Shown here in pieces: positions 7,309 to 25,019 of a DNA stretch of 44,389 nt; the first letter of the stretch is position 1, and every line of letters begins with the position of its first letter. Source of the DNA: Thermoanaerobaculia bacterium (lineage in GTDB: Bacteria; Acidobacteriota; Thermoanaerobaculia; Multivoradales; UBA5704); assembly GCA_030150965.1 (NCBI GenBank), contig JASLEW010000115.1, positions 1 through 44,389 on the forward strand, written 5' to 3'. The notes beneath the pieces are model-generated. The model searched no databases. It saw nothing but the letters and a program-made list of their open reading frames with translations, and had not been told where the DNA came from. A program made the position numbers and the translations under genes.

Positions 7309-8544
7309 ATGAGCACGAGCGCGCCGCGCCGCACCCGCCAGGGCTTCGAGCGCCGCCTGCGGGCGCGCATCCTCGGCCCGTCGATCGAGGACCAGGTGGC
7401 CGAGGAGATCGAGCTGCACGTCGAGCTGCTGGCGCGGGAGCTGATGGAGGAAGGGATGAGCGAGGCACAGGCAAGGGCCGAGGCGGCCCAGCGCTTCCAC
7501 GACCGCGCCCAGGTGGAGGCCGCCTGCGCGGCCATCGCCCGCCGCAGCGAGCGGCGCTGGCGCTGGCGGATCTTCCTCGGCGAGCTGCGCGACGACATGC
7601 GCCAGGGCGTGCGGCAGCTGCTGCGCGCCCCCTCCTTCGCCGCCGTCGCCCTGCTCACCCTGGCCGCCGGGATCGGCGCCACCACCGCCATCTTCAGCGT
7701 CGTCGAGGGGGTCGTGCTGCGCCAGTTCCCCTTCGCCCATCCCGAGCGGGTGACGATCGTCTCGGAGCTGTGGAGGGAGGGCGACAGCGACTTCTCGGTG
7801 GGCAACTTCGCCGACCTGGAGGAGCCCGCCGCCCGCGGCTTCGCGGCGTTCGCGGCGCAGCGCTTCCTGCCGCTCAACCTGGCCGACGGCGACCATCCCG
7901 AGCGCTTGCTGGCGGCGCCGGTGTCGCACCGCTTCTTCGCCGTCTTCGGCGTCGAGCCCCGGCTCGGCCGCACCTTCACCGCGCGCGAGGACCGGCCCGG
8001 GGCGGAGCCGGTCGCGGTGCTCTCCGACGGGCTCTGGCGCGAGCGGCTCGGCGCCGACCCCGCCATCCTGCAGCGCTCGATCCACCTGTCGGGACGCGCC
8101 TACCGGGTGGTCGGCGTCATGCCGCCGGGCTTCGATCCCACCCTGTCGCACGAGGAGCTGTGGCTGCCGATCGCCTTCACCCCGGCGCAGCGCGCCCAGC
8201 ACGACGACCACTTCCTCGAGGTGGTGGGGCTGCTGCGGCCAGGGATCAGCCCGGCCGCGGCCCAGGCCGGGCTGACGCCGGCGATGCGGCGGGTGGCGCA
8301 GCTCCATCCCGAGGGCAACTCCACCCGCACCGGCGTGCACGTCGTGCCGCTGGCCGATAAGGTGATCGGTTCCTACCGCCAGCGCCTGCTCGTCCTCCTC
8401 GCGGCGGTCGGCCTGGTGCTGCTGATCGCCTGCGCCAACGTGGCGAGCCTGCTGCTCGCCCGCGGCTCGGGGCGGGCGCGCGAGCTGGCCATCCGCGCCG
8501 CGGTCGGCGCCGGCGCGGGGCGGATCGTGCGCCAGCTGACGTGA
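7309..8544 (+). CDS. ADOP/MacB-type FtsX permease, N-terminal portion (truncated)
   Basis: The order is an N-terminal helical prefix, TM1 (FAAVALLTLAAGIGATTAIF), and a MacB-like periplasmic domain. The first FtsX helix follows (LLVLLAAVGLVLLIACANVASLLLARG...RELAIRAAVGAG). The ORF stops immediately after that helix, and the remaining FtsX helices are missing. Confidence 0.75.
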   Translation: MSTSAPRRTRQGFERRLRARILGPSIEDQVAEEIELHVELLARELMEEGMSEAQARAEAAQRFHDRAQVEAACAAIARRSERRWRWRIFLGELRDDMRQGVRQLLRAPSFAAVALLTLAAGIGATTAIFSVVEGVVLRQFPFAHPERVTIVSELWREGDSDFSVGNFADLEEPAARGFAAFAAQRFLPLNLADGDHPERLLAAPVSHRFFAVFGVEPRLGRTFTAREDRPGAEPVAVLSDGLWRERLGADPAILQRSIHLSGRAYRVVGVMPPGFDPTLSHEELWLPIAFTPAQRAQHDDHFLEVVGLLRPGISPAAAQAGLTPAMRRVAQLHPEGNSTRTGVHVVPLADKVIGSYRQRLLVLLAAVGLVLLIACANVASLLLARGSGRARELAIRAAVGAGAGRIVRQLT

Positions 8545-9137
8545 CCCCGGAGTTCTACCTGCCGGTCGCCCAGGCGCCGCCCGAGGCCTGGACCTGGATC
8601 CAGCGCACCATGAGCCTGGTGGCGCGCGGCCGCGACCCGCGCCTCCTGGCCGGCGTGATGCGCGCCACGGTGCGCGGCCTCGATCCGTCGCTGCCGCTCA
8701 CCTTCAGCTCGCTCGGCGAGGCGCTGCGCGGCGCCACCGCGGAGGAGCGCTTCTACACCCTCCTGCTGTTCACCCTCGGCCTGCTCGGCCTGTTCCTGGC
8801 GGCGGTGGGCGTCTACGGCGTGATCGCCTACTTCGCCGGCCTGCGCACCCGCGAGATCGGCATCCGCATCGCCCTGGGCGCCAGCCGGCGCAGCGTCCTG
8901 GCCCTCATCGCCTGGCAGGGCGTGCCGCCGGTCGCGGGCGGCCTCGCCGCCGGCGCCGCCGGCGCCCTCGCCGCCACCCGCGGCCTCCAGGGCTCGCTCC
9001 ACGGCGTGAGCCCAACCGATCCGCTGACCTTCCTCTGCGTCATCCTGGTGCTCGCGGCGACCGCCGGCTGCGCCGTGCTCATCCCGGCCCTCGGCGCCAC
9101 CCGGGTCAATCCGCAGGAGGCGATCCTGCGGCCCTGA
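8541..9137 (+). CDS. ADOP/MacB-type FtsX permease, C-terminal portion
   Basis: It starts at a GTG that overlaps the upstream stop (GTGA) in a different frame. It encodes the end of a periplasmic domain plus a complete FtsX three-helix module (REIGIRIALGAS... LTFLCVILVLAATAGCAVLIPAL). Confidence 0.7.
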   Translation: MTPEFYLPVAQAPPEAWTWIQRTMSLVARGRDPRLLAGVMRATVRGLDPSLPLTFSSLGEALRGATAEERFYTLLLFTLGLLGLFLAAVGVYGVIAYFAGLRTREIGIRIALGASRRSVLALIAWQGVPPVAGGLAAGAAGALAATRGLQGSLHGVSPTDPLTFLCVILVLAATAGCAVLIPALGATRVNPQEAILRP

Positions 9138-10845
9138 GGGCGCCGGGCGGGCGGCGGCGCGCGGCCCTGGCGCGCGGCCTGGTTGGGTGCCGCGAATCGT
9201 CGATCCCGCGCCGCAGCATCTGGCCGGGCATGGCGGAGGTGAGCTGGCCGTGATCGAGCACCAGCTGCCCGTTGACCAGCACGTCGTCGATCCCGTCCGG
9301 CAGCAGCAGCGGGTGCTCGTAGGTGGCGCGGTCACGGATGCGCGCCGGATCGAAGATCACGATGTCGGCGTGGTAGCCCTCGCGCAGCAGACCGCGCCCT
9401 GCCAGGTGGAAGGTCTCAGCGCTCAAACCGGTGAGGCGGTGGATGGCCTGGGACCACGACAGCACCTCCTCCTCGACCACGAATCTCCTCAGGAAGCGCG
9501 GGAAGGTGCCGCAACCTCGGGGGTGCGGCAGGTAGGCCGTGTCCCGATAACGGATGGCGCTGTCGGAGCCCACCATGGTCCCCGGGTCGGCCGCGATGCG
9601 CTCCATGACCTCGCCGCAGATATTGTGATAGATCATCTGCGCCTCGCCGCCCGCGACCAGCTGATCCACGATACGCAGCTGCTGATCGAGCCCACGGGCC
9701 CCGAGCTCCAGGTCGGCGATCTGCGGCACCCGCAGGCCGCTCCACCGCGGGTGGCCGCCGGCCAGAGCGACGCGCGCAAAGCCGAAGTCCTGCCATCCCT
9801 GCGCCGCGAGGCCCGCCATCACCGCGGCTTCCAGCCGCCGCAGCTGGCGCGGATCACGCAGCAGCCGGCGGCGCTCCCCCCCTTCGGCGGCGAAGTACCA
9901 GTCGGGAAGGAGCGGATCGAGGTTGGTGCTGGACGCCGCGTAGGGATAGAAATCGTCCCCCACGATCAGGCCCTCGCGGCGGCCCGCCGCGATCAGCTCC
10001 TGGCGGCGCTGGAAGTCGCCGCAGGCGGCGGCGCCGGTACCGGTCACCTTGAGGTGCGAGATGAACAGCGGGATCCGCGCCTCCCGGCTCAGGCGCATCA
10101 CCTCCTCCAGGGCCGCCAGCCCCGCCGCGCCCTCGTCGCGGACGTGGCTCGCATGCAGGCCCCCGAACCGCGCCGCCTCGGCCAGCAGCGCCTCGATCTC
10201 CTCCGGCGGGCTGAGGCGCCCTGGCAGATACGCCAGACCGGTGGAGATCCCCAGCGCACCCTGGCGCATCGCCCGGGCGACCAGCTCCCGCATGCGGGCC
10301 AGCTGGGCCTTGGAGGGAGCGTCGTTGGCCCGCGCTCCCATCACGGCGCGCTTGACCGTGTTGTGACCGATCAGGGTGGCGACGTTGACGTTGACGCCGT
10401 AGCGGTCGATGAGGGAGGCGAGCTCGGCGGGGTGGAGCGGGGACCTGCCGCAATTGCCGGTGACGAGGGTGGTGACGCCCTGTCCCACGTAGTTCCAGGC
10501 GTTGATCGGCGCCTCGGCCGCCAGCACCGAGGCGTCGGCATGGGAATGGGTATCGATGAAGCCCGGGGCGGCGATACGGCTCCTGGCGTCAAGGAGCTGC
10601 CGGCTGTGAAACCAGCGCGGACCGCGCCAGATCGCCACGATGCGGTCCCGCCGCACACCGATGCTGACGTGGTAACGGGCCGGAGCGCCGCTGCCGTCCA
10701 CCAGCGTGGCATCGGTGATGACAAGATCATAGCTCGGCGCCCGCCCCAGCCCCAGGTGCACGGCCACGGCGATGCCGAGCGCCAGCGCCGCCGTAGCCGC
10801 CAGGGCCAGGTGCGGCCGGCGCCAGGGTGGCGGCAGGAGGCGCAT
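9106..10845 (-). CDS. N-acyl-D-amino-acid deacylase (D-aminoacylase, amidohydrolase superfamily), N-terminally anchored or secreted
   Basis: 579-aa ORF with PGFIDTHSHAD metal-binding and GVTTLVTGNCG motifs, and the DLVITDATLVDGSGAP start typical of D-aminoacylases. Its ATG is 3 nt downstream of the stop of the preceding gene. Confidence 0.85.
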   Translation of the reverse strand: MRLLPPPWRRPHLALAATAALALGIAVAVHLGLGRAPSYDLVITDATLVDGSGAPARYHVSIGVRRDRIVAIWRGPRWFHSRQLLDARSRIAAPGFIDTHSHADASVLAAEAPINAWNYVGQGVTTLVTGNCGRSPLHPAELASLIDRYGVNVNVATLIGHNTVKRAVMGARANDAPSKAQLARMRELVARAMRQGALGISTGLAYLPGRLSPPEEIEALLAEAARFGGLHASHVRDEGAAGLAALEEVMRLSREARIPLFISHLKVTGTGAAACGDFQRRQELIAAGRREGLIVGDDFYPYAASSTNLDPLLPDWYFAAEGGERRRLLRDPRQLRRLEAAVMAGLAAQGWQDFGFARVALAGGHPRWSGLRVPQIADLELGARGLDQQLRIVDQLVAGGEAQMIYHNICGEVMERIAADPGTMVGSDSAIRYRDTAYLPHPRGCGTFPRFLRRFVVEEEVLSWSQAIHRLTGLSAETFHLAGRGLLREGYHADIVIFDPARIRDRATYEHPLLLPDGIDDVLVNGQLVLDHGQLTSAMPGQMLRRGIDDSRHPTRPRARAARRRPPGALRAAGSPPAD

Positions 10846-10848
10846 CGC

Positions 10849-12438
10849 TCACCGCGGCCGGCGGAGGCCGTGCGCGCTGCCGCGCGTTCCCAGCTCCCGG
10901 ACGTACTCCTCGATCTTGCCGCGGACGGCGGGATCGGTCTCGTAGCGCAGGCACTGCTGGTAAGCCTGGATGGCATCCTGGTTGCGGTGCAACCGGACGT
11001 AGACACGGCCGAGCTCACGATAGAGGCTGGCCCGCCCGGGCTCGATGGCGATGGCCTGCCGCAGGTAGCCGAGGGCCTCCTGGGGCTGCTCGTCGCCGAC
11101 CAGCTTTGCCAGGTTCAGCAGCGGGAAGATGAACCTGGGGTCGGCGGCATGGGCCCGCTGGTAGAACTCCTTCGCCCGCTCGGTGCTGCGCAGCTCGGCG
11201 CCGCCGCGGACGTACACCTTGCCGATGCCGTTGAGCGCCAGCGGCCAGTCCGCATGCAGCGCCAGCGCCTGCTGATAGCCGTCGAGCGCCTCCCGGTAGC
11301 TGCCGCGGGCGAACGCCAGCTGGGCATTGCAGTAATCGAGGCGGGCCGTCAGCTCGCGGTCTGCCGGATCGGTCTTGGCAAGGAAGCCGTACATCGCCGC
11401 CAGCCGCGGCCAGTCGGTGTTCTCGTCCGACTCGCTGTAGAAGCGCTGCAGGAGCGCATCCGCCTGCGGCCTGAGGACGGCGGAGATCCGGCGGCCGAGG
11501 TCCCGCAGCTCGGTGGAGCCGGGTTCCGCCTGGGCGAGCTGGTTGTAGAGCTCGACCGCCGAGCTGCCCGAAGACGACAGGAGATCGCCGTGCCCGATCG
11601 CCTCCAGCGCCCGCCCGTAAGGTCCCTGGCCGCCCACCCAGCGGACGAGCAAGTAGATCAGCACGGCGGCGGCGACGGCCAGGACGAACAGGGTCCGGCC
11701 GCTCCTCCGCCGTGGCGCCGGAGCGGCCCCGGAAGGCGCGGCAGCCACCGGCGCTGGTTGTGCCTGGGGTGGGGCCGGAGCGGCAGCCGCCGGCGCTGTC
11801 GCCTGCGCTCGCCGCGAAGGAGCGCCGGCACGCGCCAGGGTGGCGGCGACCGGCGGGGAAAAAGGTGCAACCCGCGGAGTTGCCCTCGCCTCCCCTGCTT
11901 CCGGTCCCTGCGCCGTCCGCAAAGACGGCGGCGCGGCGGCGGGCAGGGCGGCCACCGGCGGATCTGCCGGCGTTGCCGGAGCCAGGGGGGCCAGCGAGAT
12001 CGGCGGAGTGGTCGGGGCGGGGGTCTCGCCACAGAACGGACAGGAGGCGCCACCTAACAGCACCTTGGTGTCGCCGCCGACGCCGCGGCAGGCGTGGCTG
12101 GGGCCGCTGGGGCCGCGCCGGCACCAGGCGCACGCCGGCTCGATGTCGGCCGGGGAGACGACGCCGCACGGGCAGGCGAAAAGCGTCCCCGGCATGATGT
12201 TGCAGTGCCGGCATTGCAGATCGGCAGGCACCTTCGCCCGCCAGGCCACGGGGTCGGGCTCACAGGAACACAGATACCAGCTGTAGTCCTCTCCCTCCTG
12301 GCGGGGGAAGGTCCCCAGGCACCCGCCACCGCTCACATCCATCACCACGCGCGAGCCGTCGACCTCGTAGACCTGGGTGCCCCCGGCATCGGGGAGGAAG
12401 AAGGCCAGGAAGCGCCGGGCCGCTGCCGTTGCGGGCAT
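10849..12438 (-). CDS. zinc-ribbon / Pro-Ala-rich linker / single TM / TPR-repeat protein
   Basis: The N-terminus has Cys knuckles (CSC...CRHC, CPC...CAWC, CPFC). A TM segment (TLFVLAVAAAVLIYLLV) is preceded by RRRSGR, and the C-terminus has TPR-like repeats (ALNGIGKVY..., AKEFYQRA..., ALGYLRQAIAIEP..., AIQAYQQCL). The ATG at 12438 follows GAGAGGA; a GTG at 12453 would overlap the upstream stop as GTGA. Confidence 0.7.
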   Translation of the reverse strand: MPATAAARRFLAFFLPDAGGTQVYEVDGSRVVMDVSGGGCLGTFPRQEGEDYSWYLCSCEPDPVAWRAKVPADLQCRHCNIMPGTLFACPCGVVSPADIEPACAWCRRGPSGPSHACRGVGGDTKVLLGGASCPFCGETPAPTTPPISLAPLAPATPADPPVAALPAAAPPSLRTAQGPEAGEARATPRVAPFSPPVAATLARAGAPSRRAQATAPAAAAPAPPQAQPAPVAAAPSGAAPAPRRRSGRTLFVLAVAAAVLIYLLVRWVGGQGPYGRALEAIGHGDLLSSSGSSAVELYNQLAQAEPGSTELRDLGRRISAVLRPQADALLQRFYSESDENTDWPRLAAMYGFLAKTDPADRELTARLDYCNAQLAFARGSYREALDGYQQALALHADWPLALNGIGKVYVRGGAELRSTERAKEFYQRAHAADPRFIFPLLNLAKLVGDEQPQEALGYLRQAIAIEPGRASLYRELGRVYVRLHRNQDAIQAYQQCLRYETDPAVRGKIEEYVRELGTRGSAHGLRRPR

Positions 12439-12449
12439 CGGAGATCCTC

Positions 12450-13778
12450 TCACCCAACCTGGAGGCGGCCCTTGGTGACCACCCGGTATCCCCTGCCCGA
12501 CTCCTCCAGGCAGGGATGCTGGAGCAGCGAGACGGGGCCGTAGTTCGCTCCGTCCACATAGAACAGTGGCTCGAAGATGAACAGGTGCTGGCGGAAATAG
12601 GGCTGGTCGATCGCCGGCAGTGCGCGCACCTCGCCGTTTGTGGGGTCCTTGAAGACGCGGAAGCCCGGCTGCGACGGCGCTGGCGCCTCCACCAGCAGAT
12701 CCACCATTTTGTCGAACCGCATCATCCGGCTCGCCGGCGGGGCGAGACGCTGGAGGTCGGCGACGAGGCCGAGGTAGCTGTTCGCCGCGGGCTGCGGCGC
12801 GACGGAGTCGTCATCGGGTCCTGGCGCCGGAAGCGGTTCGTATCCCACGCCGCCTGAGGAGTCGGGCGTGGCGCCGCCGGCGCCGGCCGGGGACCGCGGG
12901 GCAGTTTGAATCCTGCGGTCCGGCGTCTCCCCCGGCCCGGCGCCGCGCTCCTCACGAATGGACAACAGCCGCCGGACCTTCTGCTCGGTCTGGTCCTGGG
13001 CCGTCCTGGCAGAGGAGTCCAGCTGATTGAGCTGCTCCCACAGCTTCCCCAGCTCCACCTTCAGCGTCTGCTCGCAAAGAATCACCCTGGCGCGGAGGTC
13101 CTTCCTCTCGGTCTGGTCGAGGAACTCCTTGGTCACGGCGAGACCACCCAAGACCAGGCCGAACACCGCAACCACCAGCGGCAGATTCGGCACCACCGGC
13201 AGGTTCGGCCCCGGCGGGGGTGGGGGCGTACCCTGCCCGCGGTTCTCCGGCGCTGAATCAGTTCCGCCCGCCGTCCCCCCTCCCTGCTGTGCGCCCGGCG
13301 GTGGCGGCGGCGTCCCTTGCAGCTCACCTGCGATCTCGTCGCGTTTCCGCTGGATCCGCGTGTGGAGATCGTCATAGGCATCCAGCCCCGAGCTCGTCTT
13401 CAGCTTGTCGTAGCTCTGTTCGAGGTTCTGTTCGAGCTCTCCGAGCCGGTCATCGAGATCCTTCAAGACCTCGGGGCCGTGGCTCGGCGCATCCGCGGTG
13501 CACGACTTGAAGCCCTGGTCGAAGGGGAGCAGCAGCGTGCGATCGGGGCTCGGCTTGGGGAGCGCTTCCACGCGGTCCGTCGCCGCACCCGCACCGTTCC
13601 GCGCTGACGATGCGCCGGCCGCCGTGCCCTTCGAGCCCGGCGACCGGTTCCCCGTCCGGTGCGCGGACGCGCCCTTCGTCCCGCCTCCCTGCACCTCCAG
13701 GCACACGGCCGCGGAGGCCCACAGGCAGAGGGCGAGCACCGGCCATGCCGCGCCCGCCCGGAAGCGACTCCGTGCCAT
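12450..13778 (-). CDS. bitopic membrane protein with signal peptide, coiled-coil segments, Pro-rich spacers and an uncharacterised C-terminal domain
   Basis: The ATG at 13778 lies 7 nt after GGAGGG and 1 nt after the upstream stop. The signal peptide is MARSRFRAGAAWPVLALCLWASAAVC, with heptad-like regions on both sides of a TM segment (LPLVVAVFGLVLGGLAVT). I recognise no family match. Confidence 0.65.
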   Translation of the reverse strand: MARSRFRAGAAWPVLALCLWASAAVCLEVQGGGTKGASAHRTGNRSPGSKGTAAGASSARNGAGAATDRVEALPKPSPDRTLLLPFDQGFKSCTADAPSHGPEVLKDLDDRLGELEQNLEQSYDKLKTSSGLDAYDDLHTRIQRKRDEIAGELQGTPPPPPGAQQGGGTAGGTDSAPENRGQGTPPPPPGPNLPVVPNLPLVVAVFGLVLGGLAVTKEFLDQTERKDLRARVILCEQTLKVELGKLWEQLNQLDSSARTAQDQTEQKVRRLLSIREERGAGPGETPDRRIQTAPRSPAGAGGATPDSSGGVGYEPLPAPGPDDDSVAPQPAANSYLGLVADLQRLAPPASRMMRFDKMVDLLVEAPAPSQPGFRVFKDPTNGEVRALPAIDQPYFRQHLFIFEPLFYVDGANYGPVSLLQHPCLEESGRGYRVVTKGRLQVG

Positions 13779-13779
13779 G

Positions 13780-16700
13780 TCAACGCCCTCCACTCATCAT
13801 CTGGAGCAGGGTGTGCCGCACCTCGCGGTGGAGCAGCGGGTACTCCCAGATCGCCCGCACCAGACTGGTGGTGTCCGGCGTGTGCTCGGAAGAGGCGGTG
13901 CCGTAGACGTCGAGGGCCGTCCTGGCAATCTCGTGGAGCGCGCTGTTCCAGGCCTCCCAGCCCATCTTGTCGAGCATCCGGGCCGCCGGACCGGTGTAGC
14001 CGCCGGTCTTCATCAGGTCCAGGGCCTGGAGCTGCCGGGCCACGCTCTCGGGGCCGGGGACCGGCTGGAAGGTCGCGGGGTCGGGGCTGACCCGCGCCAC
14101 CTTGATCGTTTCGGACCCGTCGCCATGTCCGTTGGGCGAGAGCCGGCCGACCTCGCGCAGGATGAAATCGTCGACCTGCTCCTTGCCGACCGACGAGTAC
14201 CACGGCAGCACGATCCTCGGCTGCGGCCCGCCGTCGGCGCCGGTCTGCCCGTCCGGCAGCACCGCCAGGTCGAAGCCGACGATGCCGCAGGCCGAGCTGC
14301 CGCTACCGCCCGCACCCTCGATCAGGCCGCCGGCGGCGACCAGGTCCTTCGAGTACACGGCCTGGCCGTCGAGGACGTAGCTGACGATGTCGTCCATGAG
14401 CCGGACCTTGACCTCGTCGGCCTCGGGCAGGCGCGGCCGGCTCTCCGGCGGCCCCTGGCCCTCCATCGCCCGCTTGAGCTCGCGGTACAGAGCCTTCACC
14501 AGGGTGGTGATCCTGGCCGCCGACCGCGCCACCCCGGCGTGCGGCAGGAGGCCCCAGCCGTTGCCGGCCAGCACCACGTAGATCGCCGACGGCAGCGGGC
14601 GCCCCGGGATCGGGGCCACGGCGAGGAGCAGCCCGTGGGTCAGCACGAGATGGAACAGCGACCGCATCCAATGCCCGGGCGCATAGCGGTCGATCTTCGG
14701 CGCCACCTCCTCCGCCACCGTCGCCTCGCGCAGGTCGAGCGTCCGGATGTCCCGGTTCTTCATGTACGACGGGCTCTTGTCTGGCATCATCTCGCCGACC
14801 CGCAGGGTGTAGAACTGGCGCAGCTTGCCGATCACCGCGTCGTCGCGCAGGCAGGCCAGGTCGGGGAACCAGGCCGGCAGCCCGGTCATCGACTCGATGC
14901 TCTTCTTGAACGTCGCGTACTCCGCGTCGGACGAGATGTCCTGGAAGAAGCTGAACAGCCGGTTGCCGGCCAGCACCATGCTGTCCAGGAAGCAGAGCTG
15001 GTCGCCCGGATGGATGCCGCCACCGGCCGGGCGTGGGCCGCCGGCGAAGACCGCATAGTCGGCCGAGCCTCCCCCCATGTCGATGAGGACCACGCGATGA
15101 CTCTCCGGCAGGTACTCCTCCTTCTTCTCGCGGTGCGAGCGGTTGTAGGCCCGGAAAACCGCCTGGCTCTCGTCGACCATGGCAATGTTGGGGCCTTCTT
15201 TGGGGTTCACGCCGCCTGGGCAAGCGAGCTCCTCGACTACTTCGACCGCGCGGCGCGCTGCGTTCTCGTAGAGCCTGGCCTCGATCGGCTTCATGCTCAG
15301 CGGATAGGTGAAGGTGTAGTGCGACGGCAGCGCGCCGGTCTTGGCGAAGACCTCGGCGGCAACGTGCAGCAGCAGCAGCTCCAGGAACGCCATGCGGAAG
15401 GCGCGGCGCCGCAGGTCCTGCTCGGGGGAGTCGCCGGGCGACGCCCACTTGAGGTTGTCCTCGACACCCCAGGGGAGGAGCGTGGAGTCGCGGATATCCA
15501 GAGCCAGCTGGCCCTTGGTGCCCAGCAGGTCGAAGACCCCGACGAGCCCGGCCAGGTCGGCGGCGGTCTGGCCGCCGGGGTTGGCCAGTCCCTGGAGCAG
15601 CGGCAGATCGCGGGCGAGCGCCAGGCGGTAGCCGAGGAGCGTCGGGAAGAACCCGCGGTGGAAGCCGCTGTCGTCGCCGCCGGCCTCCAGGAACCAGCCG
15701 GGCTGGACAGCCTGCGGCAGCCGGCGCTCGGGGCGCGGCTGCACCAGCGGCCCCGCCCAGGGGCGCAGCTCCAGCACCCGCGGCTTGGTGGCGCCGTCTC
15801 CCCTCAGGGCCACGCTGGTGTTGCTGGTGCCGAAGTCGATGCCGGCCTGGAGCCGGCTCTGCTGCTCGGCGTCGCGGAAGACGGCGCCGCTGAGGAAGAG
15901 CAGGCCGGCCTGCTGGGGCTCCTCGGCGCCGGCTTGGCCGGTCTGAAGGACCTCGGCCAGGCGCGGTGGGCTGGTCAGCCGGGTGAAGGTGTAGGTGTCC
16001 TGGGCGTCGTGCGGCGCCGCCGCCACGGCGGGCTCGGCGACGCCGTCCTCGCCGTGGAAGCGCAGCGACAGCCGGCCGCTCGCCGCCAGCGTCCGCACGA
16101 AGTACGCCGACCAGCGCGGCTCCCGCACGGCGCGGAAGGTCGGCCAGACGTCCGCCTGCGGCAGCCTCATCTCGTCGAGCTTCCAACCGATCAGGCGGGT
16201 CTTCCAGCTCACCTGCCGCAGTGCATCGAAGTCGGTCCCCTTGGGCAGCGGCAGGGTGAGGCGGCAGAGCGCCTCGGTGGCGGCGTTGGCGCCGACGGCG
16301 CCGGAGGCAAGCCGGACCAGCTCCCCCGGGGCGGCGATGAATTGCGGGAACAGCCGCAGCAGGTTGCTGTGGAGCGGCAGCAGCGGCGTCACGTCGTCGC
16401 GCTTGGTGAGCGTGCGCCGCCAGTCGGCGTGCGCCTGGTGGAGCAGGGCGGGGTCGAGCGCGTTGGCGCCTTCCAGGTAGAACAGCGCCCCGCCGACGGC
16501 CCGCAACCGCGCCGGCGCCTGGGGGCTCAGCGACAGCACCTGATGATCGCTCGGCACCTGGTACACCTGGCGGTTGCGGCCCAGCACCTCGACCACCTGG
16601 TTCTCCGGGTCGATGCGCACCGTGAGGTCGCAGAGACGCGAGCGGTCCGCGGTGCCGGGGAAGGCCAGCCGCGTCGCCCAGGGGTTCAAGGCGACATCGA

Positions 16701-17646
16701 TGCCTTCGGCGATGAACAGCACCGGCGTCGCGCCGCCTCCGGCCCCCGGCGCCAGGGCACGCAGCGGATAGTTGCTCCAGACCTCGGACTGATCGAGGCC
16801 GTGATATCGGTAGCCGAGGAAGCTCCGGGGCTCGCTCGTCAGCCGTTCCTCGACGGCCCGCCCGGACGCGCCGTACTGCGTGGCCAGCACCGTGCGCAGC
16901 AGCTCGACCGCCTGGTACAGGTTGCCGAAGAGGCTCCCCTGCTGGCTCTCGGCCAGTTGCTCGGCGAGCCTGCCGAGAACGGAATCGAAGGCTTCGGCGA
17001 AACCCTCCTGCCGTCCATAGTGCTCCATCAGCTGCGACAACCGGAACGTCACCGCCGCCGCTCCGGGCACCTGGAACTTCTCCAAGCCGGGATCTGCATC
17101 CGGCGTCGGCGTCTCCAGCGCGGGAAACACGAGGCAGGGCCCGTAGCAGGCGCCGACGACCGCGCCCCCGGAGCCGGTGCGCAGCACGGTCAGCCCGCCT
17201 TCGCCGTGCAGGCGGTAGAGGACCGGCGGCCAGCGCGCCTCGTCAGGCTCGATCGGCAGGCCGGCGTGCAGCGCCGGGTAGAGGTCCTCGTCGAGCCGCT
17301 TGAGCGTCTCGGCCGGCACTCGGACGGCTTCCAGGTCCCCCTGGAAGAGGGCGGCGAGCAGGCCCGCCCACACCTGGAAGTGCTCGGCGTCGGTCCGCCG
17401 CGGTTTCTGGTCGATCTCGGCGGCCAGCGTCTCGAGGAAGGTCTCGGCGTGTGCCCAGATGGTCGGCTTGGCCTCGCGTGCAAGGCCGCGGAACGCCGCG
17501 TCCAGCGGATCGAACAACCGGCGTTCGCGGATCGCGGTATCGAACAGGGTGAAGGCCCTGGTCTCGCCGGCCCGTGTCGCCGCACCGATGCCGTGCCAAT
17601 GATCGCGGCCGAACTTGGGCAGGAGAAACTCCAGCTTGTTGGACAT
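13780..17646 (-). CDS. giant actin/Hsp70-fold (ASKHA) ATPase-like protein with ~600-aa uncharacterised N-terminal region
   Basis: 1288-aa ORF; the ATG follows GGAGGGAG. The phosphate-1 motif is GIDFGTSNTS (nt 15814..15843). The phosphate-2 motif is VVLIDMGGGSADYAVF (nt 15046..15087). An adenosine-like motif is YVVLAGNGWGLL, and the terminal motif SKDLVAAGGL resembles Hsp70 DEAVAxGAA. Confidence 0.8.
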   Translation of the reverse strand: MSNKLEFLLPKFGRDHWHGIGAATRAGETRAFTLFDTAIRERRLFDPLDAAFRGLAREAKPTIWAHAETFLETLAAEIDQKPRRTDAEHFQVWAGLLAALFQGDLEAVRVPAETLKRLDEDLYPALHAGLPIEPDEARWPPVLYRLHGEGGLTVLRTGSGGAVVGACYGPCLVFPALETPTPDADPGLEKFQVPGAAAVTFRLSQLMEHYGRQEGFAEAFDSVLGRLAEQLAESQQGSLFGNLYQAVELLRTVLATQYGASGRAVEERLTSEPRSFLGYRYHGLDQSEVWSNYPLRALAPGAGGGATPVLFIAEGIDVALNPWATRLAFPGTADRSRLCDLTVRIDPENQVVEVLGRNRQVYQVPSDHQVLSLSPQAPARLRAVGGALFYLEGANALDPALLHQAHADWRRTLTKRDDVTPLLPLHSNLLRLFPQFIAAPGELVRLASGAVGANAATEALCRLTLPLPKGTDFDALRQVSWKTRLIGWKLDEMRLPQADVWPTFRAVREPRWSAYFVRTLAASGRLSLRFHGEDGVAEPAVAAAPHDAQDTYTFTRLTSPPRLAEVLQTGQAGAEEPQQAGLLFLSGAVFRDAEQQSRLQAGIDFGTSNTSVALRGDGATKPRVLELRPWAGPLVQPRPERRLPQAVQPGWFLEAGGDDSGFHRGFFPTLLGYRLALARDLPLLQGLANPGGQTAADLAGLVGVFDLLGTKGQLALDIRDSTLLPWGVEDNLKWASPGDSPEQDLRRRAFRMAFLELLLLHVAAEVFAKTGALPSHYTFTYPLSMKPIEARLYENAARRAVEVVEELACPGGVNPKEGPNIAMVDESQAVFRAYNRSHREKKEEYLPESHRVVLIDMGGGSADYAVFAGGPRPAGGGIHPGDQLCFLDSMVLAGNRLFSFFQDISSDAEYATFKKSIESMTGLPAWFPDLACLRDDAVIGKLRQFYTLRVGEMMPDKSPSYMKNRDIRTLDLREATVAEEVAPKIDRYAPGHWMRSLFHLVLTHGLLLAVAPIPGRPLPSAIYVVLAGNGWGLLPHAGVARSAARITTLVKALYRELKRAMEGQGPPESRPRLPEADEVKVRLMDDIVSYVLDGQAVYSKDLVAAGGLIEGAGGSGSSACGIVGFDLAVLPDGQTGADGGPQPRIVLPWYSSVGKEQVDDFILREVGRLSPNGHGDGSETIKVARVSPDPATFQPVPGPESVARQLQALDLMKTGGYTGPAARMLDKMGWEAWNSALHEIARTALDVYGTASSEHTPDTTSLVRAIWEYPLLHREVRHTLLQMMSGGR

Positions 17647-17667
17647 GTCGTTGTGCTCCCTCCGTCT

Positions 17668-19491
17668 TCAGACGACGCCCTCTTTCACCGCGGTCAGGTG
17701 ATCGGCCATGTAGTTCCACAGCGACTGAAGATAGGCGATGCCCAGCGGGTGGTTGTCGGCGCGGTCCTCGGTCGAGACGCCGCGCAGGGCCTCGAGCCGC
17801 GAGGTGACGGGCACGTTCTTGCCGAGTGCCTCGGTGTCGACCCCCGCCAGGCGCCAGGCGGCGAACGCATAGGACGCCGGCGCCTTGTGCAGCAGGCCGC
17901 CGGTCTTGCCGAAACGGACCGGGTGGCGCAGCCAGTCGCGCATCAGCTGGGTGGTCTGCACCTGCTCCCAGCCGAGGGCGCGCGCGGTGTGGAGCAGCGC
18001 CTCGCCGATGTGGCGGGCGAGGGCGTTGAGGTCGTCGCGGAACTGCTCATAATGATCGGCGCTGACGAAGCGGTGCAGGGCCTGCAGCGTGTTGCGGGCG
18101 TTCTCGAACGACTGTCGCGTGGCGATGTAGGGCACCAGGCTGTAGGTCAGCCAGTTGAACCCGGCGAGCGCCGCGTAGAGCCAGCGGTCGGCGCTCACCG
18201 ACGGATCGAGCGCCAGGTCGGCCCAGCAGAGCGCGTCGCCCACGGCGCTGTCGTGGTGGTGCACGCCGAGCAGCTGTGTGCCGCTCTCCGGCGCCGCGGT
18301 CTTGGTGAAGAAATTGAGCGCCAGGCCCGCCGCCGCGAACTCCACGGCATGCAGGGGCGAGACCTGGTTGCGGCCGCCGTTGCACCAATGGATGCGCGGA
18401 CTGAAATGCGGATCGTTGGGATAGTCCGCCGGGTCCAGCTCCACCTCGCTGTAGCGGGTGGGATTGCGCAGACCGAGCACGTACAGCTCGTCGAACAGCT
18501 CCTGGCCGTGCTTCTGGTAGTAGTCCCAGCTCGCCACCGCTCGCCGCTCGATCTCCTCGGGCTTGGCATAGTAGCCACGCGCGATCTGCCGTATCTCGTC
18601 GGTCGAGAAGTCCTGCCCGAGGCCGGCAAGGCCGCGGCCGACATTGCGCGCCCGCACCCCCTCCAGGAAGTCCGCCTCGCTCTGGCCGCTCCGCCGCAGG
18701 AAGTCGTCGAGCGGCTCGGCGCCGTCTGGAAGCCACTGGTTCCCCCAGTCCAGCTCGCGCAGCGGCGGGGCCGGCGGGTAGAAATAGGGACCGAGCAGGC
18801 AGCCGGCGACCCGCCAGCTGTCGCGGTCGTGGTTGTCGTCGGCCACCTGGCGCACGATCTTCGAGATCACCGGGATCCCGGCCGCGCCGGTGCCGCCGTA
18901 CATGCTGCCGACCACGAAGACGCGCAGCCGCTTGCCGCGGAAGCCCTGCAGCAGGGCGACCAGCGGCGATTTCGCCTCCACCTTGAGCTCGCCCATGGAG
19001 GCGATGACCGCGGCGCCGATGAAGGGTTTCTGGAAGAAGCCGCGGTCGAGCGGCGTCGCGAGATCGGCCTCGCTGTAGAAGAGCCGCAGGATCTGCATGG
19101 CCTCGTTGTGCCCGGCCGGCCGGCTGGCCAGCTTGCCGGCCAGCGTTTCGACGCCGGGAGGCCCGGAGAGCGCGTCGAGCGGGTGGATCGTGACCAGGTC
19201 CTGGAGCTTGAGCGACCAGAGCCCGCGCGACGCCCCGTCGCCGCCGGTCTTGCCGATGGCGCGATAGCGGCTGACCGCCTCTTGCAGCGACGCGGAGCGG
19301 CAGGCCTTGTCGGGATCGATACGCACCAGGGTGAGGCTGTCGGCGGCGTTGGCCGCGGCATGACCGGCGGTGGGCTCCTGCGCCAGCAGCGGGATGCCCA
19401 GGCACAGCAGATCGATCAGCGCCTCGGCCACCTTGGCGCCGGTGCCGCCGACGGCGAAGACCACGTAGTTGGTGGCGGTGTCGTTGGCCAT
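17668..19491 (-). CDS. divergent tubulin/FtsZ-like GTPase
   Basis: The internal ATG at 19491 follows GGAGGG and overlaps the upstream stop (TGATG). The N-terminus reads NYVVFAVGGTGAKV. GFFQKPFIGA is T3-like. VFVVGSMYGGTGAAGIPVISKIV (nt 18877..18906 covers GSMYGGTGAAG) resembles the FtsZ T4 loop AGMGGGTGTGAAPVIA. The upstream 148 codons of the ORF are R/G/A/P-rich and overlap a better gene. Confidence 0.75.
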   Translation of the reverse strand: MANDTATNYVVFAVGGTGAKVAEALIDLLCLGIPLLAQEPTAGHAAANAADSLTLVRIDPDKACRSASLQEAVSRYRAIGKTGGDGASRGLWSLKLQDLVTIHPLDALSGPPGVETLAGKLASRPAGHNEAMQILRLFYSEADLATPLDRGFFQKPFIGAAVIASMGELKVEAKSPLVALLQGFRGKRLRVFVVGSMYGGTGAAGIPVISKIVRQVADDNHDRDSWRVAGCLLGPYFYPPAPPLRELDWGNQWLPDGAEPLDDFLRRSGQSEADFLEGVRARNVGRGLAGLGQDFSTDEIRQIARGYYAKPEEIERRAVASWDYYQKHGQELFDELYVLGLRNPTRYSEVELDPADYPNDPHFSPRIHWCNGGRNQVSPLHAVEFAAAGLALNFFTKTAAPESGTQLLGVHHHDSAVGDALCWADLALDPSVSADRWLYAALAGFNWLTYSLVPYIATRQSFENARNTLQALHRFVSADHYEQFRDDLNALARHIGEALLHTARALGWEQVQTTQLMRDWLRHPVRFGKTGGLLHKAPASYAFAAWRLAGVDTEALGKNVPVTSRLEALRGVSTEDRADNHPLGIAYLQSLWNYMADHLTAVKEGVV

Positions 19492-19970
19492 CAGCGTACC
19501 CTCCGCCACGGCATGTGCGTCAGGTGCGCCGGCAGGTGCAGGCCGAGGAAGACGGCGACGTAGATCACCGCGCCGCAGAGCAGCAACGACATCATGTTGG
19601 TGACGCCGATGAGCCGTGCCGAGTTGGGCTCCAGGAGATAGACGGCGCTCGCGTAGCAGGCGAGGAAGACGAACAGCCACAGCGCCAGGGCAAACCGCGA
19701 GCGCCGCGGGCCGTACGCCAGCTCGCGCGCCCCGTTGCTGCGGGCGACGCTTTCGCGCCAGAGCTTGAAGAGGAATGCCAAGATGGCCGCCACCACCGCC
19801 GCGAAGGTGATGGAGAGCGCACTGGAGACGGCGACCTGATGCGCCGCCGGATGGCCCTGGAACTCCGGCCGGATCAGGAAGTCGATCAGCCAGCGCAGCA
19901 CCGCACTGGACTCCGTCATCCTGGCGGGCTGCCACGCCAGGACCTCAAAGGCATCGATGATGGTGGTCAC
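19491..19970 (-). CDS. small polytopic membrane protein (3-4 TM)
   Basis: 159-aa ORF with a GTG start 6 nt after GGGAGGA. It has hydrophobic helices (VAVSSALSITFAAVVAAILAFLF, FALALWLFVFLACYASAVYLL, MMSLLLCGAVIYVAVFLGLHL). Its stop overlaps the start of the tubulin-like gene. Confidence 0.65.
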   Translation of the reverse strand: MTTIIDAFEVLAWQPARMTESSAVLRWLIDFLIRPEFQGHPAAHQVAVSSALSITFAAVVAAILAFLFKLWRESVARSNGARELAYGPRRSRFALALWLFVFLACYASAVYLLEPNSARLIGVTNMMSLLLCGAVIYVAVFLGLHLPAHLTHMPWRRVR

Positions 19971-20009
19971 TCCTATCCTCCCATGGGCACGCGGCGGTGG
20001 CGGAATGCA

Positions 20010-21611
20010 TCAGACCTTGCTGGGCCAGATGACCAGGTACCAGGGCTTGAGCGTCTGCGCGGCGCTGCTGGAGTTGCGCAGCAACCCGGATACCAGGGCC
20101 TTCAGGTTCAGCAGCTGGTTCGCCGAGCCGGGTTTGGAATCGTCCTCCGTCGACCAGCTCTCGATCCACGCCGGCAGGCGCAGCCGCGCCGGATCGAAGC
20201 GCCCCTCGACCCGCAGCAGGGTGAGCGGCAGGTAGTCGCCGGACGGGGTCCAGCGCAGCACCAGGTGGCCGCCGGCTCCCGCCCCGGCCGCGCTCGGAGC
20301 AGTGGCCGGCGCGAAGGTCAGCGGTTCGCTCACCGTATCCGCCAGTGCCTCCTCGAATTGCAACCGTTTCAGCTGGTAGCCCGCGGGCGGCCAGGCGAGC
20401 GATTGGGCGCTCTCGTACCAGGCGCGGGGCCGCGCGACCTCGCGCACGGTGAAGCGCAGCTCGCTCGCCGCGTCCCTGGCGGCGCTGCCGAAGAAGGCGC
20501 GGCCGGCCTCGGTAAGCTCGATGTCGGCGGCGATATGGACCGCTCCCGGATGCAGGAAGTCGAGGTCCTGCCAGAGATACTGCAGCACCTGCACGTCCTG
20601 GCTGAGCGGGATGTCGTTGAAGTCGACGCGCCAGGTATCCTCGGTGGCCAGGCGCAGCGGGTTGGGCACCGGCGAGCCCCCGGCGACGGCGTCCTTGACC
20701 GCATAGGCCGCGGTGTCGAGCGCCGGCCGCGCGCGCTTGACCAGGGGGAGGGTCAGCGGCAGCTCCCGCACCAGCCGCGGATCGAGGCCGGCCTGCACGG
20801 CCTCGCGCAGCCGGTCCACCACCGGCTGCAGGTCCTCGCGGTTCTCGGTGAAGACGAGCAGCAGGAACGGCCGGTAGCGGGCGGGGTCGGCGGGATCGAC
20901 CGCGCGGTAGACGCCAGATTGGCCGCCGCCGCGCGTCTCGGAATAGACCGGGCCGGAGAAGCGGCTGCGGATGCCGAAGATGTGGACGCCCCAACCGCGG
21001 TCGATCAGGGCGGCGATCGCGGCATTGGCGCAGCGCGCGTCGGCGCCGGCGGCGCAGCGGGAATCGGCGACATCGAGCGGCAAGCTCTGCACGCCGTCGG
21101 TGACGAAGAGATCGACCGCGTTCGGCCGGTCCGCCGCGTGGGCCGCCGGCTGGGGGGCTTCGCCGAACGAGCGTATGGTCGCGGCGATGTCGCTCGCCGC
21201 CCCGTTGTAGAACCCGGCGGAGCGGGTCACGGTGAGCAGGGTGGGGGCGGCGGCCGGGGCCTGGCGCGCGGCGGCATCGACTCGCCGCAGCGTGAGCGGC
21301 TGCGCGGCATCCAGCTGATCCGCCATGGTCGCCACCGCCCGCAACGCGCGCGAGTACTCGAAGGAGCCTGCCGGGTCGGAGAAGCCCCGCATGCTGGCGC
21401 TCGCATCGATGTAAAGGACGGGAGCGCCGCGGCGCCGCGCGGGGCCGGCCGGCGAGCGGGTCCCCTCGGCGGTTTGGATCCAATCCGCCAGCGTGTGATG
21501 CCTGAACGTCGGATCGTCAGGCTGATGGATACAGCTGAAACATGCTGCCGCCGCCGCGGCGAGCGCTAGGGCCCCGACGCGGGCGCGATGTCGAAACGCT
21601 GGCAACGGCAT
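20010..21611 (-). CDS. von Willebrand factor A (vWA)-like domain protein, probable lipoprotein or secreted, with ~300-aa uncharacterised C-terminal region
   Basis: The signal is MPLPAFRHRARVGALALAAAAAAC. The MIDAS DxSxS motif is YIDASASM (nt 21390..21413), with a downstream LFVTDGVQS motif. The ATG follows GAGGAAGGG. Confidence 0.75.
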   Translation of the reverse strand: MPLPAFRHRARVGALALAAAAAACFSCIHQPDDPTFRHHTLADWIQTAEGTRSPAGPARRRGAPVLYIDASASMRGFSDPAGSFEYSRALRAVATMADQLDAAQPLTLRRVDAAARQAPAAAPTLLTVTRSAGFYNGAASDIAATIRSFGEAPQPAAHAADRPNAVDLFVTDGVQSLPLDVADSRCAAGADARCANAAIAALIDRGWGVHIFGIRSRFSGPVYSETRGGGQSGVYRAVDPADPARYRPFLLLVFTENREDLQPVVDRLREAVQAGLDPRLVRELPLTLPLVKRARPALDTAAYAVKDAVAGGSPVPNPLRLATEDTWRVDFNDIPLSQDVQVLQYLWQDLDFLHPGAVHIAADIELTEAGRAFFGSAARDAASELRFTVREVARPRAWYESAQSLAWPPAGYQLKRLQFEEALADTVSEPLTFAPATAPSAAGAGAGGHLVLRWTPSGDYLPLTLLRVEGRFDPARLRLPAWIESWSTEDDSKPGSANQLLNLKALVSGLLRNSSSAAQTLKPWYLVIWPSKV

Positions 21612-21736: not shown

Positions 21737-22309
21737 ATGCCCACCGCGCCGCGCGACGTGACGGTCCTCCTCAGGGAATGGAGCGAGGGCGATCCCGCGG
21801 CCCTCGAAGGGCTCATGCCGCTGGTCCTCGACGACCTGCGGCAGCTGGCGCGCCGGCAGTTCCGCGGCGAGCGCTCGGCGCACACCCTGCAGCCGACCGC
21901 GCTGATCAACGAGGTCTACCTGCGCCTCTACGGCCAGCAGAAGCTGCATTGGGACAACCGGGGGCAGTTCTTCGCCTTCGCCGCCACCCTCATGCGCCGC
22001 GTCCTGGTCGATCACGCCAAGGCCCGGCTGGCGGCCAAGCGCGGCAGGGGAGTGCCCAACCTGCCCCTGGACGAGGCGCTCGCCGTGCCCGCCGGCACGG
22101 ACCGCGGCGTCGACTACATCGCCCTCGACGAGGCGCTGAGCCGCCTCTCCGCGCTCGACGGCCGGCAGGGCCAGATCGTCGAGCTGCGCTTCTTCGTCGG
22201 CCTGACCAACGAGGAGATCGCCGAGCAGCTCGGCATCTCGGTGTCCTCGGTCAAGCGGGACTGGGACCTGGCCCGCACCTGGCTGTTCCGGGAGCTGAAG
22301 CGGCCGTAG
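21737..22309 (+). CDS. ECF-type RNA polymerase sigma factor (kinase-associated ECF family)
   Basis: The N-terminus reads DVTVLLREWSEGDPAALEGLMPLVLDDLRQLARRQF. The region-4 HTH is LTNEEIAEQLGISVSSVKRDWDLARTWL. Both are typical of the ECF family encoded next to Ser/Thr kinases. Confidence 0.9.
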   Translation: MPTAPRDVTVLLREWSEGDPAALEGLMPLVLDDLRQLARRQFRGERSAHTLQPTALINEVYLRLYGQQKLHWDNRGQFFAFAATLMRRVLVDHAKARLAAKRGRGVPNLPLDEALAVPAGTDRGVDYIALDEALSRLSALDGRQGQIVELRFFVGLTNEEIAEQLGISVSSVKRDWDLARTWLFRELKRP

Positions 22310-22419
22310 GCGGCGGCGCCGGGGCGCGAGCCCGCGGCGGCGGATTCGTCGCGTCGGAAGGAGAAGGCGGGGCGGGGAAGGGCCTCGGCCAGCCGCGGAC
22401 GGGGCGATGCGAGGTGACT

Positions 22420-24882
<2,463 letters not shown>

Positions 24883-25019
24883 AGCGCCGGCGACCGCCAT
24901 AAGCCGAAACCCCGCGTTACCCCCCGGGTGAGAGGCGGCACGGGCCGCCTTTCCGAACGGGGATCCCCAGACCCGCAAACGTTGCTCGGACGAGACCTCA
25001 GCGGTCTGTGGGAGAAGTC

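Follow-up and report, generated by a model that had tools for sequence, protein, structure and literature searches.

A conserved gene module pairs a short tubulin/FtsZ-like GTPase with a giant ASKHA-domain protein and a putative vWA-like lipoprotein across bacterial phyla

A contig of 44,389 nucleotides from a Thermoanaerobaculia bacterium of the phylum Acidobacteriota (JASLEW010000115.1 of assembly GCA_030150965.1; the whole stretch, with a G+C content of 72%, is called the window here) carries seven open reading frames (ORFs) end to end on the minus strand at 9106-21611. They comprise six co-directional genes and an amidohydrolase gene, and we refer to them in order of transcription as A to G. 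The first five encode a lipoprotein with a vWA-like domain (A), a small membrane protein (B), a GTPase with a predicted tubulin/FtsZ fold (C), a giant protein with a predicted ASKHA (actin/Hsp70-fold) ATPase domain (D), and a membrane-anchored protein (E). These five genes constitute a conserved, self-contained module, to which this lineage adds F and G. Among the FtsZl1 (Tubulin_2)-vWA systems, the module forms a distinct short-form branch, in which C is obligately paired with the ASKHA protein.

The conservation of the module was assessed with tblastn and hidden Markov model (HMM) searches combined with ORF maps. A scan of one genome per GTDB species (185,579 species genomes), for which an 11-sequence subset of the C family was used because the 47-sequence alignment was too divergent, yielded 140 confirmed stretches; 79 loci were retained. 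In all 75 nonredundant loci with enough downstream sequence, D comes after C on the same strand, and A lies within 6 kb upstream of C in 77 of 77 loci, being divergently oriented in cyanobacteria. Nine contexts obtained from exact-protein look-ups, which include MAGs (metagenome-assembled genomes) of Pyrinomonadaceae, Thermoanaerobaculaceae, and Azospirillaceae, are alike in gene order and in the sizes of the products (A, ~440 to 550 aa; B, 120 to 190 aa; C, 480 to 610 aa; D, 1130 to 1290 aa; E, 320 to 480 aa). The arrangement lies far outside what chance would produce, as each related locus examined shows this gene order again. The sequence-only reading, an annotation made from the letters and ORF translations of the window, had expected these genes to be kept together in other genomes, and for the C-D pair and for A this expectation was borne out.

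The closest relatives (28 to 63% identity) are overwhelmingly from Acidobacteriota, and distant relatives occur in Cyanobacteriota (Microcystis, Anabaena, Aetokthonos, and Pannus), Sphingomonadales, gut MAGs of Bacteroidales, Bacillota, Ignavibacteria, and Salinibacter. Overall, the module is spread over at least seven bacterial phyla, including Acidobacteriota, Cyanobacteriota, Bacteroidota, and Bacillota, and it is also present in Alphaproteobacteria. Five cyanobacterial plasmids carry it, one of which is mobilizable. The plasmid hosts are Gloeothece verrucosa PCC 7822 (the mobilizable plasmid Cy782204), Picosynechococcus strains PCC 7003, 73109, and 8807, and Synechococcus NIES-970; NC_014503.1 (39251-47534; L093) and NZ_CP014003.1 (L094) are two of the plasmid loci. 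RefSeq lists the plasmid-borne products as hypothetical proteins, apart from one record for a “tubulin-like domain-containing protein.” Picosynechococcus PCC 7002 had no match among the plasmid records searched, and no relative of the module was found in the phage genome collection.

C (17668-19491, minus strand; 607 aa starting with MANDT) is confirmed as a protein with a tubulin/FtsZ fold that belongs to a short, divergent branch related to Tubulin_2 (FtsZl1), on the basis of a confident structural model, Foldseek searches, and transitive PF13809 matches in its relatives. The mechanical ORF at 17668-19935 (755 aa) is over-extended. The AlphaFold2 model, built on a 47-sequence alignment, has a pLDDT of 84.3 and a pTM of 0.91; it is compact and has no long coiled coil, and the protein is without a transmembrane segment. 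Foldseek searches of the model against the PDB returned 75 matches with an E value of ≤1e-3 (best, 5e-5), and the best 50 of the 75 are all tubulin or FtsZ structures. The alignments with tubulin span >570 columns at a root mean square deviation near 27 Å, by which a two-domain match is suggested only. Matches to PhuZ and phage tubulins among viral structures were insignificant.

The Pfam Tubulin_2 model matches C at 22.6 bits (E = 7.5e-5) over residues 187 to 238 only and does not reach the gathering score of 27 bits, the Pfam Tubulin match is sub-threshold (E = 0.011), and PDB sequences yielded weak matches to the FtsZ T4 loop only. About 50 relatives of C were found, all of them in metagenomes or MAGs. 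Precomputed PF13809 matches are present in two relatives with 41% identity (P0007 and P0009) and in many distant ones. Judged by these profile matches, the kinship of C with Tubulin_2 is real, yet C falls outside the curated family.

The motifs of the nucleotide-binding site are intact. GGTGAKV, GFFQKPFIGA, and SMYGGTGAAGIPVI, which the sequence-only reading had quoted for C, are all present, as are the motifs that it quoted for A and D. Over 83 proteins of the C family from many phyla, GGsGxK, DpD, GFyxxPxIG, GGTGAxG, and PY are conserved; we take these to be T1, a T2-like element, T3, T4, and T5. T1 of C is GGTGAK and T4 is GGTGAAG, and the glycines and threonine concerned (G15, G16, G18, G199, G200, T201, and G202) are invariant in 47 relatives. 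The PROSITE signature of the T4 loop is GGGTG[ST]G, and the GGTGAAG of C is one residue longer. Downstream of T5, a stretch with the pattern sxGGxxQxNPxxxxE (NGGxxQxNPxxxxE) is conserved in the family and is possibly T7.

D (13780-17646, minus strand; 1288 aa) is a giant, predicted cytoplasmic protein made up of an N-terminal part of ~590 aa, an ASKHA domain at ~598 to 1115, and a C-terminal part of ~170 aa. Its ASKHA ATPase domain is confirmed by a family profile run against the PDB, a Foldseek search, and five ordered motifs. The motifs are DFGTSNT (from residue 604), ESQAVF (826), DMGGGSAD (856), GNGWG (1028), and SKDLVAAGG (1099), which take the roles of phosphate 1, connect 1, phosphate 2, adenosine, and connect 2, respectively. 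LAGNRLF accompanies DMGGGSAD, and the longer forms quoted by the earlier reading, GIDFGTSNT, IDMGGGSADY, and LAGNGWG, can all be read. D604, G606, T607, E826, D856, G858, G860, D863, G1028, and G1106 show no variation in 18 sequences drawn from several phyla. In the PDB, the profile of these 18 sequences matched MreB (E = 2e-9), the Hsp70 nucleotide-binding domain (1e-6), FtsA (6e-6), and a protein of the actin family; both phosphate motifs aligned in order, and the Hsp70 matches were confined to the nucleotide-binding domain. In distant relatives of D, sub-threshold matches to MreB, Ppx-GppA, FtsA, and EutA fall at the phosphate 2 region.

D searched alone matched no family in Pfam or NCBIfam, including SrfB (PF07520) at an E value of ≤0.1, which was a family that the sequence-only reading had considered, and a single-sequence search of the PDB gave nothing useful. 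A profile search of 1.84 billion representative proteins found 80 clusters matching D, and most of these contain proteins of 1100 to 1200 aa with the same layout; no Hsp70 of canonical length was among the matches listed. An AlphaFold2 model of the C-terminal 719 residues has a pLDDT of 49 because the alignment was shallow (seven homologues), and a homologue search with the D alignment as the query returned the same seven close relatives only. Foldseek searches with this low-confidence model nevertheless placed Hsp70 nucleotide-binding domains at the top (E = 2e-6), followed by PilM. D has no Hsp70 substrate-binding domain and no match to an HSP70 model of Pfam or NCBIfam. Residues 1 to 590 (listed as window positions 13780-15870) contain PxxWAxAxxF and EW..LLAL motifs that are conserved across phyla, and no relative of this part was found in Pfam, NCBIfam, or PDB sequences; on the basis of this conservation and lack of detectable relatives, it may be a new domain. 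The last 170 residues of D have no detectable relatives of known structure either.

In one genome, Acidobacteria bacterium AH-259-G07, C and D form a single ORF of 1689 aa (L039:9992-15061). If it is a natural fusion, as is possible, it would argue for physical interaction of the two proteins. Split genes were also observed: the Thermoanaerobaculaceae MAG that is the closest named relative (L005/L014) has C in ORFs of 355 and 215 aa and a truncated lipoprotein gene, and in another locus (L003) D is divided into ORFs of 555 and 582 aa. These split C and D genes and the truncated A gene may represent pseudogenization and decay or may be errors of assembly or long-read indels.

A (20010-21611, minus strand; 533 aa) is a lipoprotein whose N-terminal domain is vWA-like and whose C-terminal domain is beta-rich. 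Its signal peptide has a lipobox-like Cys, which does not vary among eight relatives from loci like that of the window and recurs across phyla, and two further Cys residues are invariant. A is thus predicted, from these signals, to lie outside the cytoplasm. A MIDAS-like (metal ion-dependent adhesion site) motif is present in the form DASAS ... SD ... VTDG (IDASASM and VTDG in the protein), with its residues in register at D69-A-S71-A-S73, an S/T at ~140, and T171-D172. In 18 A sequences from different phyla, D69 and D172 hardly vary; most of the sequences retain the first Ser, and the second one varies. The motifs align with those of TRAP and of integrin I-domains.

Profile evidence for the domain is as follows. 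The Pfam models VWA and VWA_2 reached E values of 0.15 to 0.24 in one or two members of the A family only, and the best match of the A profile among 177,635 PDB sequences was the vWA domain of TRAP (E = 0.33), with three MIDAS elements aligned. An hhalign comparison of the A family with a reference vWA alignment gave a probability of 60.6% and an E value of 8e-5 over 126 columns, from beta1 to beta5. The reference alignment was assembled from I-domain and A-domain sequences and Escherichia coli YfbK, and it was verified by its retrieval of PDB vWA domains with E values to 1e-68 and beyond. Against YfbK alone, hhalign aligned the signal peptides and nothing else, and a single-sequence search of PDB sequences gave nothing useful. 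The earlier assignment of A as a vWA protein thus stands in part: the MIDAS residues are in register, but no HMM match was significant. Taken together, the alignments lend moderate support to a vWA-like domain in A.

B (19491-19970, minus strand; 159 aa) is a small integral membrane protein with three hydrophobic segments by hydropathy, and no Pfam family matched it. A gene for 120 to 220 aa occupies its position in loci of all phyla, and the B HMM detects most of the Acidobacteriota loci and some of the cyanobacterial, Bacteroidales, Bacillota, and sphingomonad loci. E (12450-13778, minus strand; ~442 aa from the ATG at 13778, with an alternative GTG at 13793) was labeled a coiled-coil protein by the sequence-only reading. 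Going by its hydropathy, it begins with a signal or anchor and contains low-complexity Pro/Gly stretches, a second transmembrane segment at ~196 to 225, and a C-terminal globular part. E likewise has no Pfam family; a positional equivalent of 210 to 480 aa is present in most loci, and its HMM detects members across phyla.

F (10849-12453, minus strand; 534 aa, with an alternative ATG at 12438) combines a zinc ribbon, a Pro-Ala linker, a single transmembrane segment, and a TPR domain. CxxC pairs are found in the first 160 residues and TPR families at residues 346 to 516, and the transmembrane segment (251 to 276) has RRRSGR on its N-terminal side. The predicted topology is therefore N-in, which would place the TPR array outside. 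For A, E, and F alike, simple predictions agree with the topologies that had been proposed earlier. Homologues of F are present in 38 of the 48 near-family loci. G (9106-10845, minus strand; 579 aa) is a membrane-anchored or secreted amidohydrolase with an N-terminal hydrophobic segment, a lineage-specific accessory with matches to Pfam Amidohydro_3 (5.5e-25) and to NCBIfam PRK09061 (3e-49, below the curated cut-off); it lies downstream in 16 of the 48 near-family loci.

Other accessories are also specific to lineages: zinc-ribbon/TM2-domain proteins, an SLT protein in one locus, and, downstream in Bacteroidales, transglutaminase-like and zinc-ribbon/PrsW proteins. Small membrane proteins with zinc ribbons adjoin the module in unrelated lineages (L004:7443-7928, L064:17350-18447, L002:16469-17209, and L003:7020-7607), where the N-terminal ribbon is joined to one of several parts: a TM2 domain, a PrsW protease, a double zinc ribbon, or TPR. 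Such a ribbon may serve the cytoplasmic NTPases as a common docking element.

The genes of the window are tightly packed, and the six minus-strand genes and all of the junctions listed by the sequence-only reading, including the 3 nt to the next gene, can be read in the DNA. From the stop codon of A, 39 nt lead to the GTG of B, with GGGAGGA as a ribosome-binding site, and the TGA of B overlaps the ATG of C as TGATG at 19491. The stop codon of C and the ATG of D are separated by 21 nt, with GGAGGGAG as a ribosome-binding site. The TGA of D (13782-13780) is followed after one base by the ATG of E at 13778. The GTG of F at 12453 overlaps the TGA of E (GTGA), the alternative ATG at 12438 following after 11 nt, and the ATG of G comes 3 nt after the stop codon of F. 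No Walker A motif is present in any of the seven proteins A to G, and none of them matches a P-loop family of Pfam or NCBIfam. As had been noted before, there are no dcw, MoxR/AAA+, DnaJ, or GrpE genes in the cluster or among the window neighbors scanned, and the same holds for mre genes.

Divergent from the module, beyond an intergenic region of 125 bp, are genes for an extracytoplasmic function (ECF) sigma factor (21737-22309, plus strand) and for a Ser/Thr kinase with a long TPR array (~22306-24882, plus strand). This pair and the two window genes at 24903-27212 are syntenic only in the closest relative (L001), and a regulatory link of the pair to the module is possible. The window also encodes a protein of 1173 aa with cytochrome P460-like matches and weak ones to cbb3-type cytochrome c (28508-32029, minus strand), a GGDEF protein with Reg_prop/Y_Y_Y domains (3079-6495), and a MacB/FtsX-type permease whose gene seems to be divided between two frames (7102-9137). 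Further products are MsrA, UDG, a fatty-acid desaturase, a BNR/sortilin protein, and a tryptophan-halogenase-like protein. None of the genes for these P460-like, GGDEF, permease, and further proteins is linked to the module in other genomes.

In other genomes, genes for TPR-CHAT proteins lie within 10 kb of the module in 15 of the 48 near-family (Acidobacteriota) loci, caspase and NB-ARC genes accompany it in two loci, and toxin-antitoxin and integrase genes are near some loci. In Microcystis sp. BLCC-F210, a gene for a 1249-aa STAND-type NTPase (AAA_35/AAA_16/NPHP3_N) fused to WD40 repeats (L059:5706-9455) lies directly upstream of B-C-D on the same strand, and the TPR-CHAT, caspase, and NB-ARC genes of the Acidobacteriota loci take comparable positions.

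The FtsZl1 (Tubulin_2, PF13809)-vWA operons predicted by Makarova and Koonin in 2010 (PMC2875224) are similar in that a divergent FtsZ/tubulin-fold GTPase adjoins a vWA-type protein and several membrane proteins, with a sparse distribution over many phyla and canonical FtsZ encoded elsewhere in the genome, and in that they are purely predicted. Furthermore, the Magnetospirillum operon amb2957-2961 in the supplement of that study includes a DnaK-like gene for 1626 aa (amb2961). However, the FtsZl1 proteins were described there as having 760 to 1200 aa, with an FtsZ-like domain at the N terminus, a long coiled coil, and a helical C-terminal domain, whereas C has 607 aa (480 to 640 aa in intact relatives) and no coiled coil. 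The vWA partners of FtsZl1 belong to COG2304, whereas A reaches no vWA model; the GTPase_new, OmpA, and kinase partners are absent from the module; and the obligate giant ASKHA partner, B, and E are not part of the description. The supplement contains no short form followed by a giant ASKHA protein, amb2961 being the only DnaK-like neighbor. Tubulin_2 proteins were treated as an uncharacterized outgroup in a 2023 survey.

The DO-GTPase/GAP1-N2 conflict systems (Kaur, Burroughs, Iyer, and Aravind 2020; PMC7159879) are likewise NTP-dependent, membrane-proximal multigene systems with tubulin-fold, vWA, zinc-ribbon, TPR or other repeat, and Hsp70-fold proteins. They were proposed to be threshold-setting assemblies in biological conflicts, have caspase/CHAT and STAND neighbors, and are enriched in social or multicellular bacteria. 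Membership in them was rejected, as the defining TRAFAC P-loop GTPase and GAP1 are absent and no Walker A motif occurs in the seven proteins. In those systems (PMC7159879), moreover, the tubulin-vWA and HSP70-GrpE themes are mutually exclusive and confined to Firmicutes and Actinobacteria, whereas in the present module the tubulin and Hsp70-type folds always occur together, in other phyla, and with no GrpE or DnaJ. The short-tubulin, giant-ASKHA module is absent from both of these descriptions, which are its closest computational precedents, and literature searches returned no description of it. The earlier claim that the system is undescribed therefore holds for this module, but its themes had been foreshadowed by the FtsZl1-vWA operons predicted in 2010 and by the tubulin and HSP70 themes of the DO-GTPase systems.

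Some better-known systems were also compared. As in FtsZ-FtsA, a tubulin-fold GTPase and an ASKHA ATPase are encoded side by side and would act at the cytoplasmic membrane with bitopic adaptors. FtsZ-FtsA is the best-understood case of an actin-fold protein that tethers and regulates a tubulin-fold polymer. The Pfam FtsA and Tubulin matches are sub-threshold, however, and that to FtsA occurs in relatives only, so that there is no family membership, and D, which is three times as large as FtsA, contains sizeable domains that have no known relatives. A division locus was rejected, since the window has no dcw context and the module is rare and plasmid-borne. The coupling of a vWA/MIDAS protein to a dedicated ATPase in a small operon recalls the MoxR-vWA pairs, but no AAA+ MoxR gene is present in the cluster or its flanks, the ATPase has a predicted ASKHA fold, and export as a lipoprotein is predicted for the vWA-like protein. 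A canonical Hsp70 system was excluded by the lack of an HSP70 family match, of a substrate-binding domain, and of DnaJ or GrpE among the window genes scanned. SrfB (PF07520), which is in the actin-ATPase clan, has ~1000 aa and belongs to a three-gene operon, SrfABC; D gave no match to it at the threshold reported above, and SrfA- and SrfC-like partners were not detected.

We infer the following mode of action, including filament formation and function. C would bind GTP and self-assemble on the cytoplasmic face of the inner membrane. D would bind C directly, as is suggested by the adjacency of their genes everywhere, their translational coupling here, and the one-ORF fusion in one genome, and would spend ATP on tethering, nucleating, or remodeling the C assembly in the manner of FtsA and FtsZ. 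B, E, and the zinc-ribbon membrane proteins would anchor the C-D pair and link it, through the membrane, with the TPR domain and with lipoprotein A, which would bind a ligand outside the cytoplasm at its MIDAS site. An extracytoplasmic binding event could thereby be converted into NTP-dependent assembly in the cytoplasm, or the reverse.

As to its biological role, we tentatively favor an accessory conflict or stress response at the envelope over housekeeping division, while holding this reading with less than even confidence. It is suggested by the rarity of the module, its patchy phyletic spread, its carriage on plasmids, and its STAND, CHAT, and caspase neighbors. The precedents of the FtsZl1-vWA operons and of the tubulin and HSP70 themes of conflict systems also count in favor of the overall reading. 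A more specific form of the idea is doubtful, though worth stating: the module might be a new type of prokaryotic machine, a mobile trans-envelope “dual cytoskeleton” switch, in which an obligate, co-assembling C-D unit in the cytoplasm is wired by dedicated membrane proteins to an extracellular MIDAS lipoprotein sensor, and a surface event such as contact with a phage or competitor triggers the NTP-driven assembly of polymers, through which the cell is arrested or sacrificed or its envelope reshaped.

Several points weigh against the proposed mechanism and the conflict role. No effector can be recognized in the core, be it a nuclease, a pore-former, or some hypervariable component, and PADLOC-DB 2.0.0, the curated defense-system collection with which we compared the six proteins of the cluster, had no family matching them at an E value of ≤0.1. 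CHAT and STAND neighbors occur in a minority of loci, are often on the opposite strand, and are common in these genomes anyway, and the neighboring periplasmic hydrolases (the amidohydrolase, SLT, and transglutaminase-like proteins) suit envelope remodeling equally. A T7-type catalytic loop, which is needed for polymerization-coupled GTP hydrolysis, was not identified in C. To these are added the lack of a significant HMM match for A, the low confidence of the D model, and the fact that the N-terminal 590 residues of D have no detectable relatives of known fold. Lastly, a lost stop codon or an artifact of sequencing or assembly could explain the C-D fusion, which was seen once.

The conflict or stress role is ranked above the alternative that the module is a cytoskeletal machine for envelope or membrane remodeling, a kind of “mini-divisome,” which we regard as possible but unlikely. 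Here, the C-D pair would act like FtsZ/FtsA or MreB and would position or activate periplasmic enzymes and the lipoprotein via bitopic adaptors, resulting in local remodeling of peptidoglycan or membrane, vesicle formation, or a developmental change of shape. The pairing of an FtsZ fold and an ASKHA protein with membrane tethers would suit such a machine, as would the predicted periplasmic TPR domain and the exported amidohydrolase, which is translationally coupled here and present in a third of the related loci (16/48). The SLT lytic transglycosylase lies downstream in a Thermoanaerobaculaceae locus, the transglutaminase-like and PrsW proteins hold that place in Bacteroidales, and a remodeling role is what Makarova and Koonin proposed for FtsZl1 systems (PMC2875224). 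However, a rare, patchy, and plasmid-borne module is a poor fit to a housekeeping morphogenetic system, and its enzyme neighbors vary by lineage. SEDS proteins and class B penicillin-binding proteins are not consistently linked to it, the nearest case being one transpeptidase near one Bacillota locus with a transporter gene in between, and the window lacks a dcw or mre context.

It is improbable, in our estimation, that the module is instead a nonpolymerizing device in which D is an Hsp70-like, ATP-driven chaperone or remodeler and C a GTP-dependent switch. The two would then control the folding, export, insertion, or release of membrane and lipoprotein components, with the ASKHA protein replacing the AAA+ ATPase of MoxR-vWA pairs. 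The best structural matches of D are indeed Hsp70 nucleotide-binding domains and not actin or ParM, vWA proteins usually partner an ATPase and MoxR is absent here, and a T7 loop was not identified in C, nor in FtsZl1 proteins, which were reported to be without identifiable T6-H7-T7 elements. On the other hand, D has no Hsp70 substrate-binding domain, neither a J-domain protein nor GrpE is encoded as a partner, and the top sequence-profile matches of D point to MreB and FtsA no less than to Hsp70. Given that A is predicted to be outside and D inside, direct contact would be limited to the time before export. The extended but loosely superposed tubulin alignments of C, in which a two-domain match is suggested only, also count against a mere switch.

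Chance juxtaposition of unrelated hypothetical genes, with chance motifs in a GC-rich genome, deserves virtually no weight: most of the products have no Pfam family, high-GC DNA contains many long spurious ORFs, and a promoter and terminator scan of this DNA found nothing above shuffles, but codon-position G+C supports the called frames of most genes (0.84 to 0.93 at third positions for five of the six ORFs, those passing the codon-position filter, which F as one ORF did not pass), both NTPases have structure and profile evidence, and the co-conservation census, in which the gene order recurs in 75/75 and 77/77 loci that include low-GC Bacteroidales and cyanobacteria, refutes it.

The two great families of cytomotive proteins have the tubulin fold and the actin fold, and their cooperation in bacteria is known mainly from the divisome, in the form of FtsZ and FtsA. 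The module is a second, independent, and strictly conserved pairing of predicted tubulin-fold and actin-fold proteins, with its own membrane adaptors and a putative outward-facing MIDAS lipoprotein, and it moves horizontally among at least seven phyla and onto plasmids. Since cultured cyanobacteria carry it on plasmids (in Picosynechococcus sp. PCC 7003, 73109, and 8807 and in Gloeothece verrucosa PCC 7822), the module is directly testable. Its characterization would open up the function of the FtsZl1/Tubulin_2 branch for the first time, a branch uncharacterized since 2010, and would test the idea, proposed on genomic grounds, that polymerizing NTPases serve as threshold switches in bacterial conflict systems. 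It could possibly also reveal a new mode of trans-envelope signaling.

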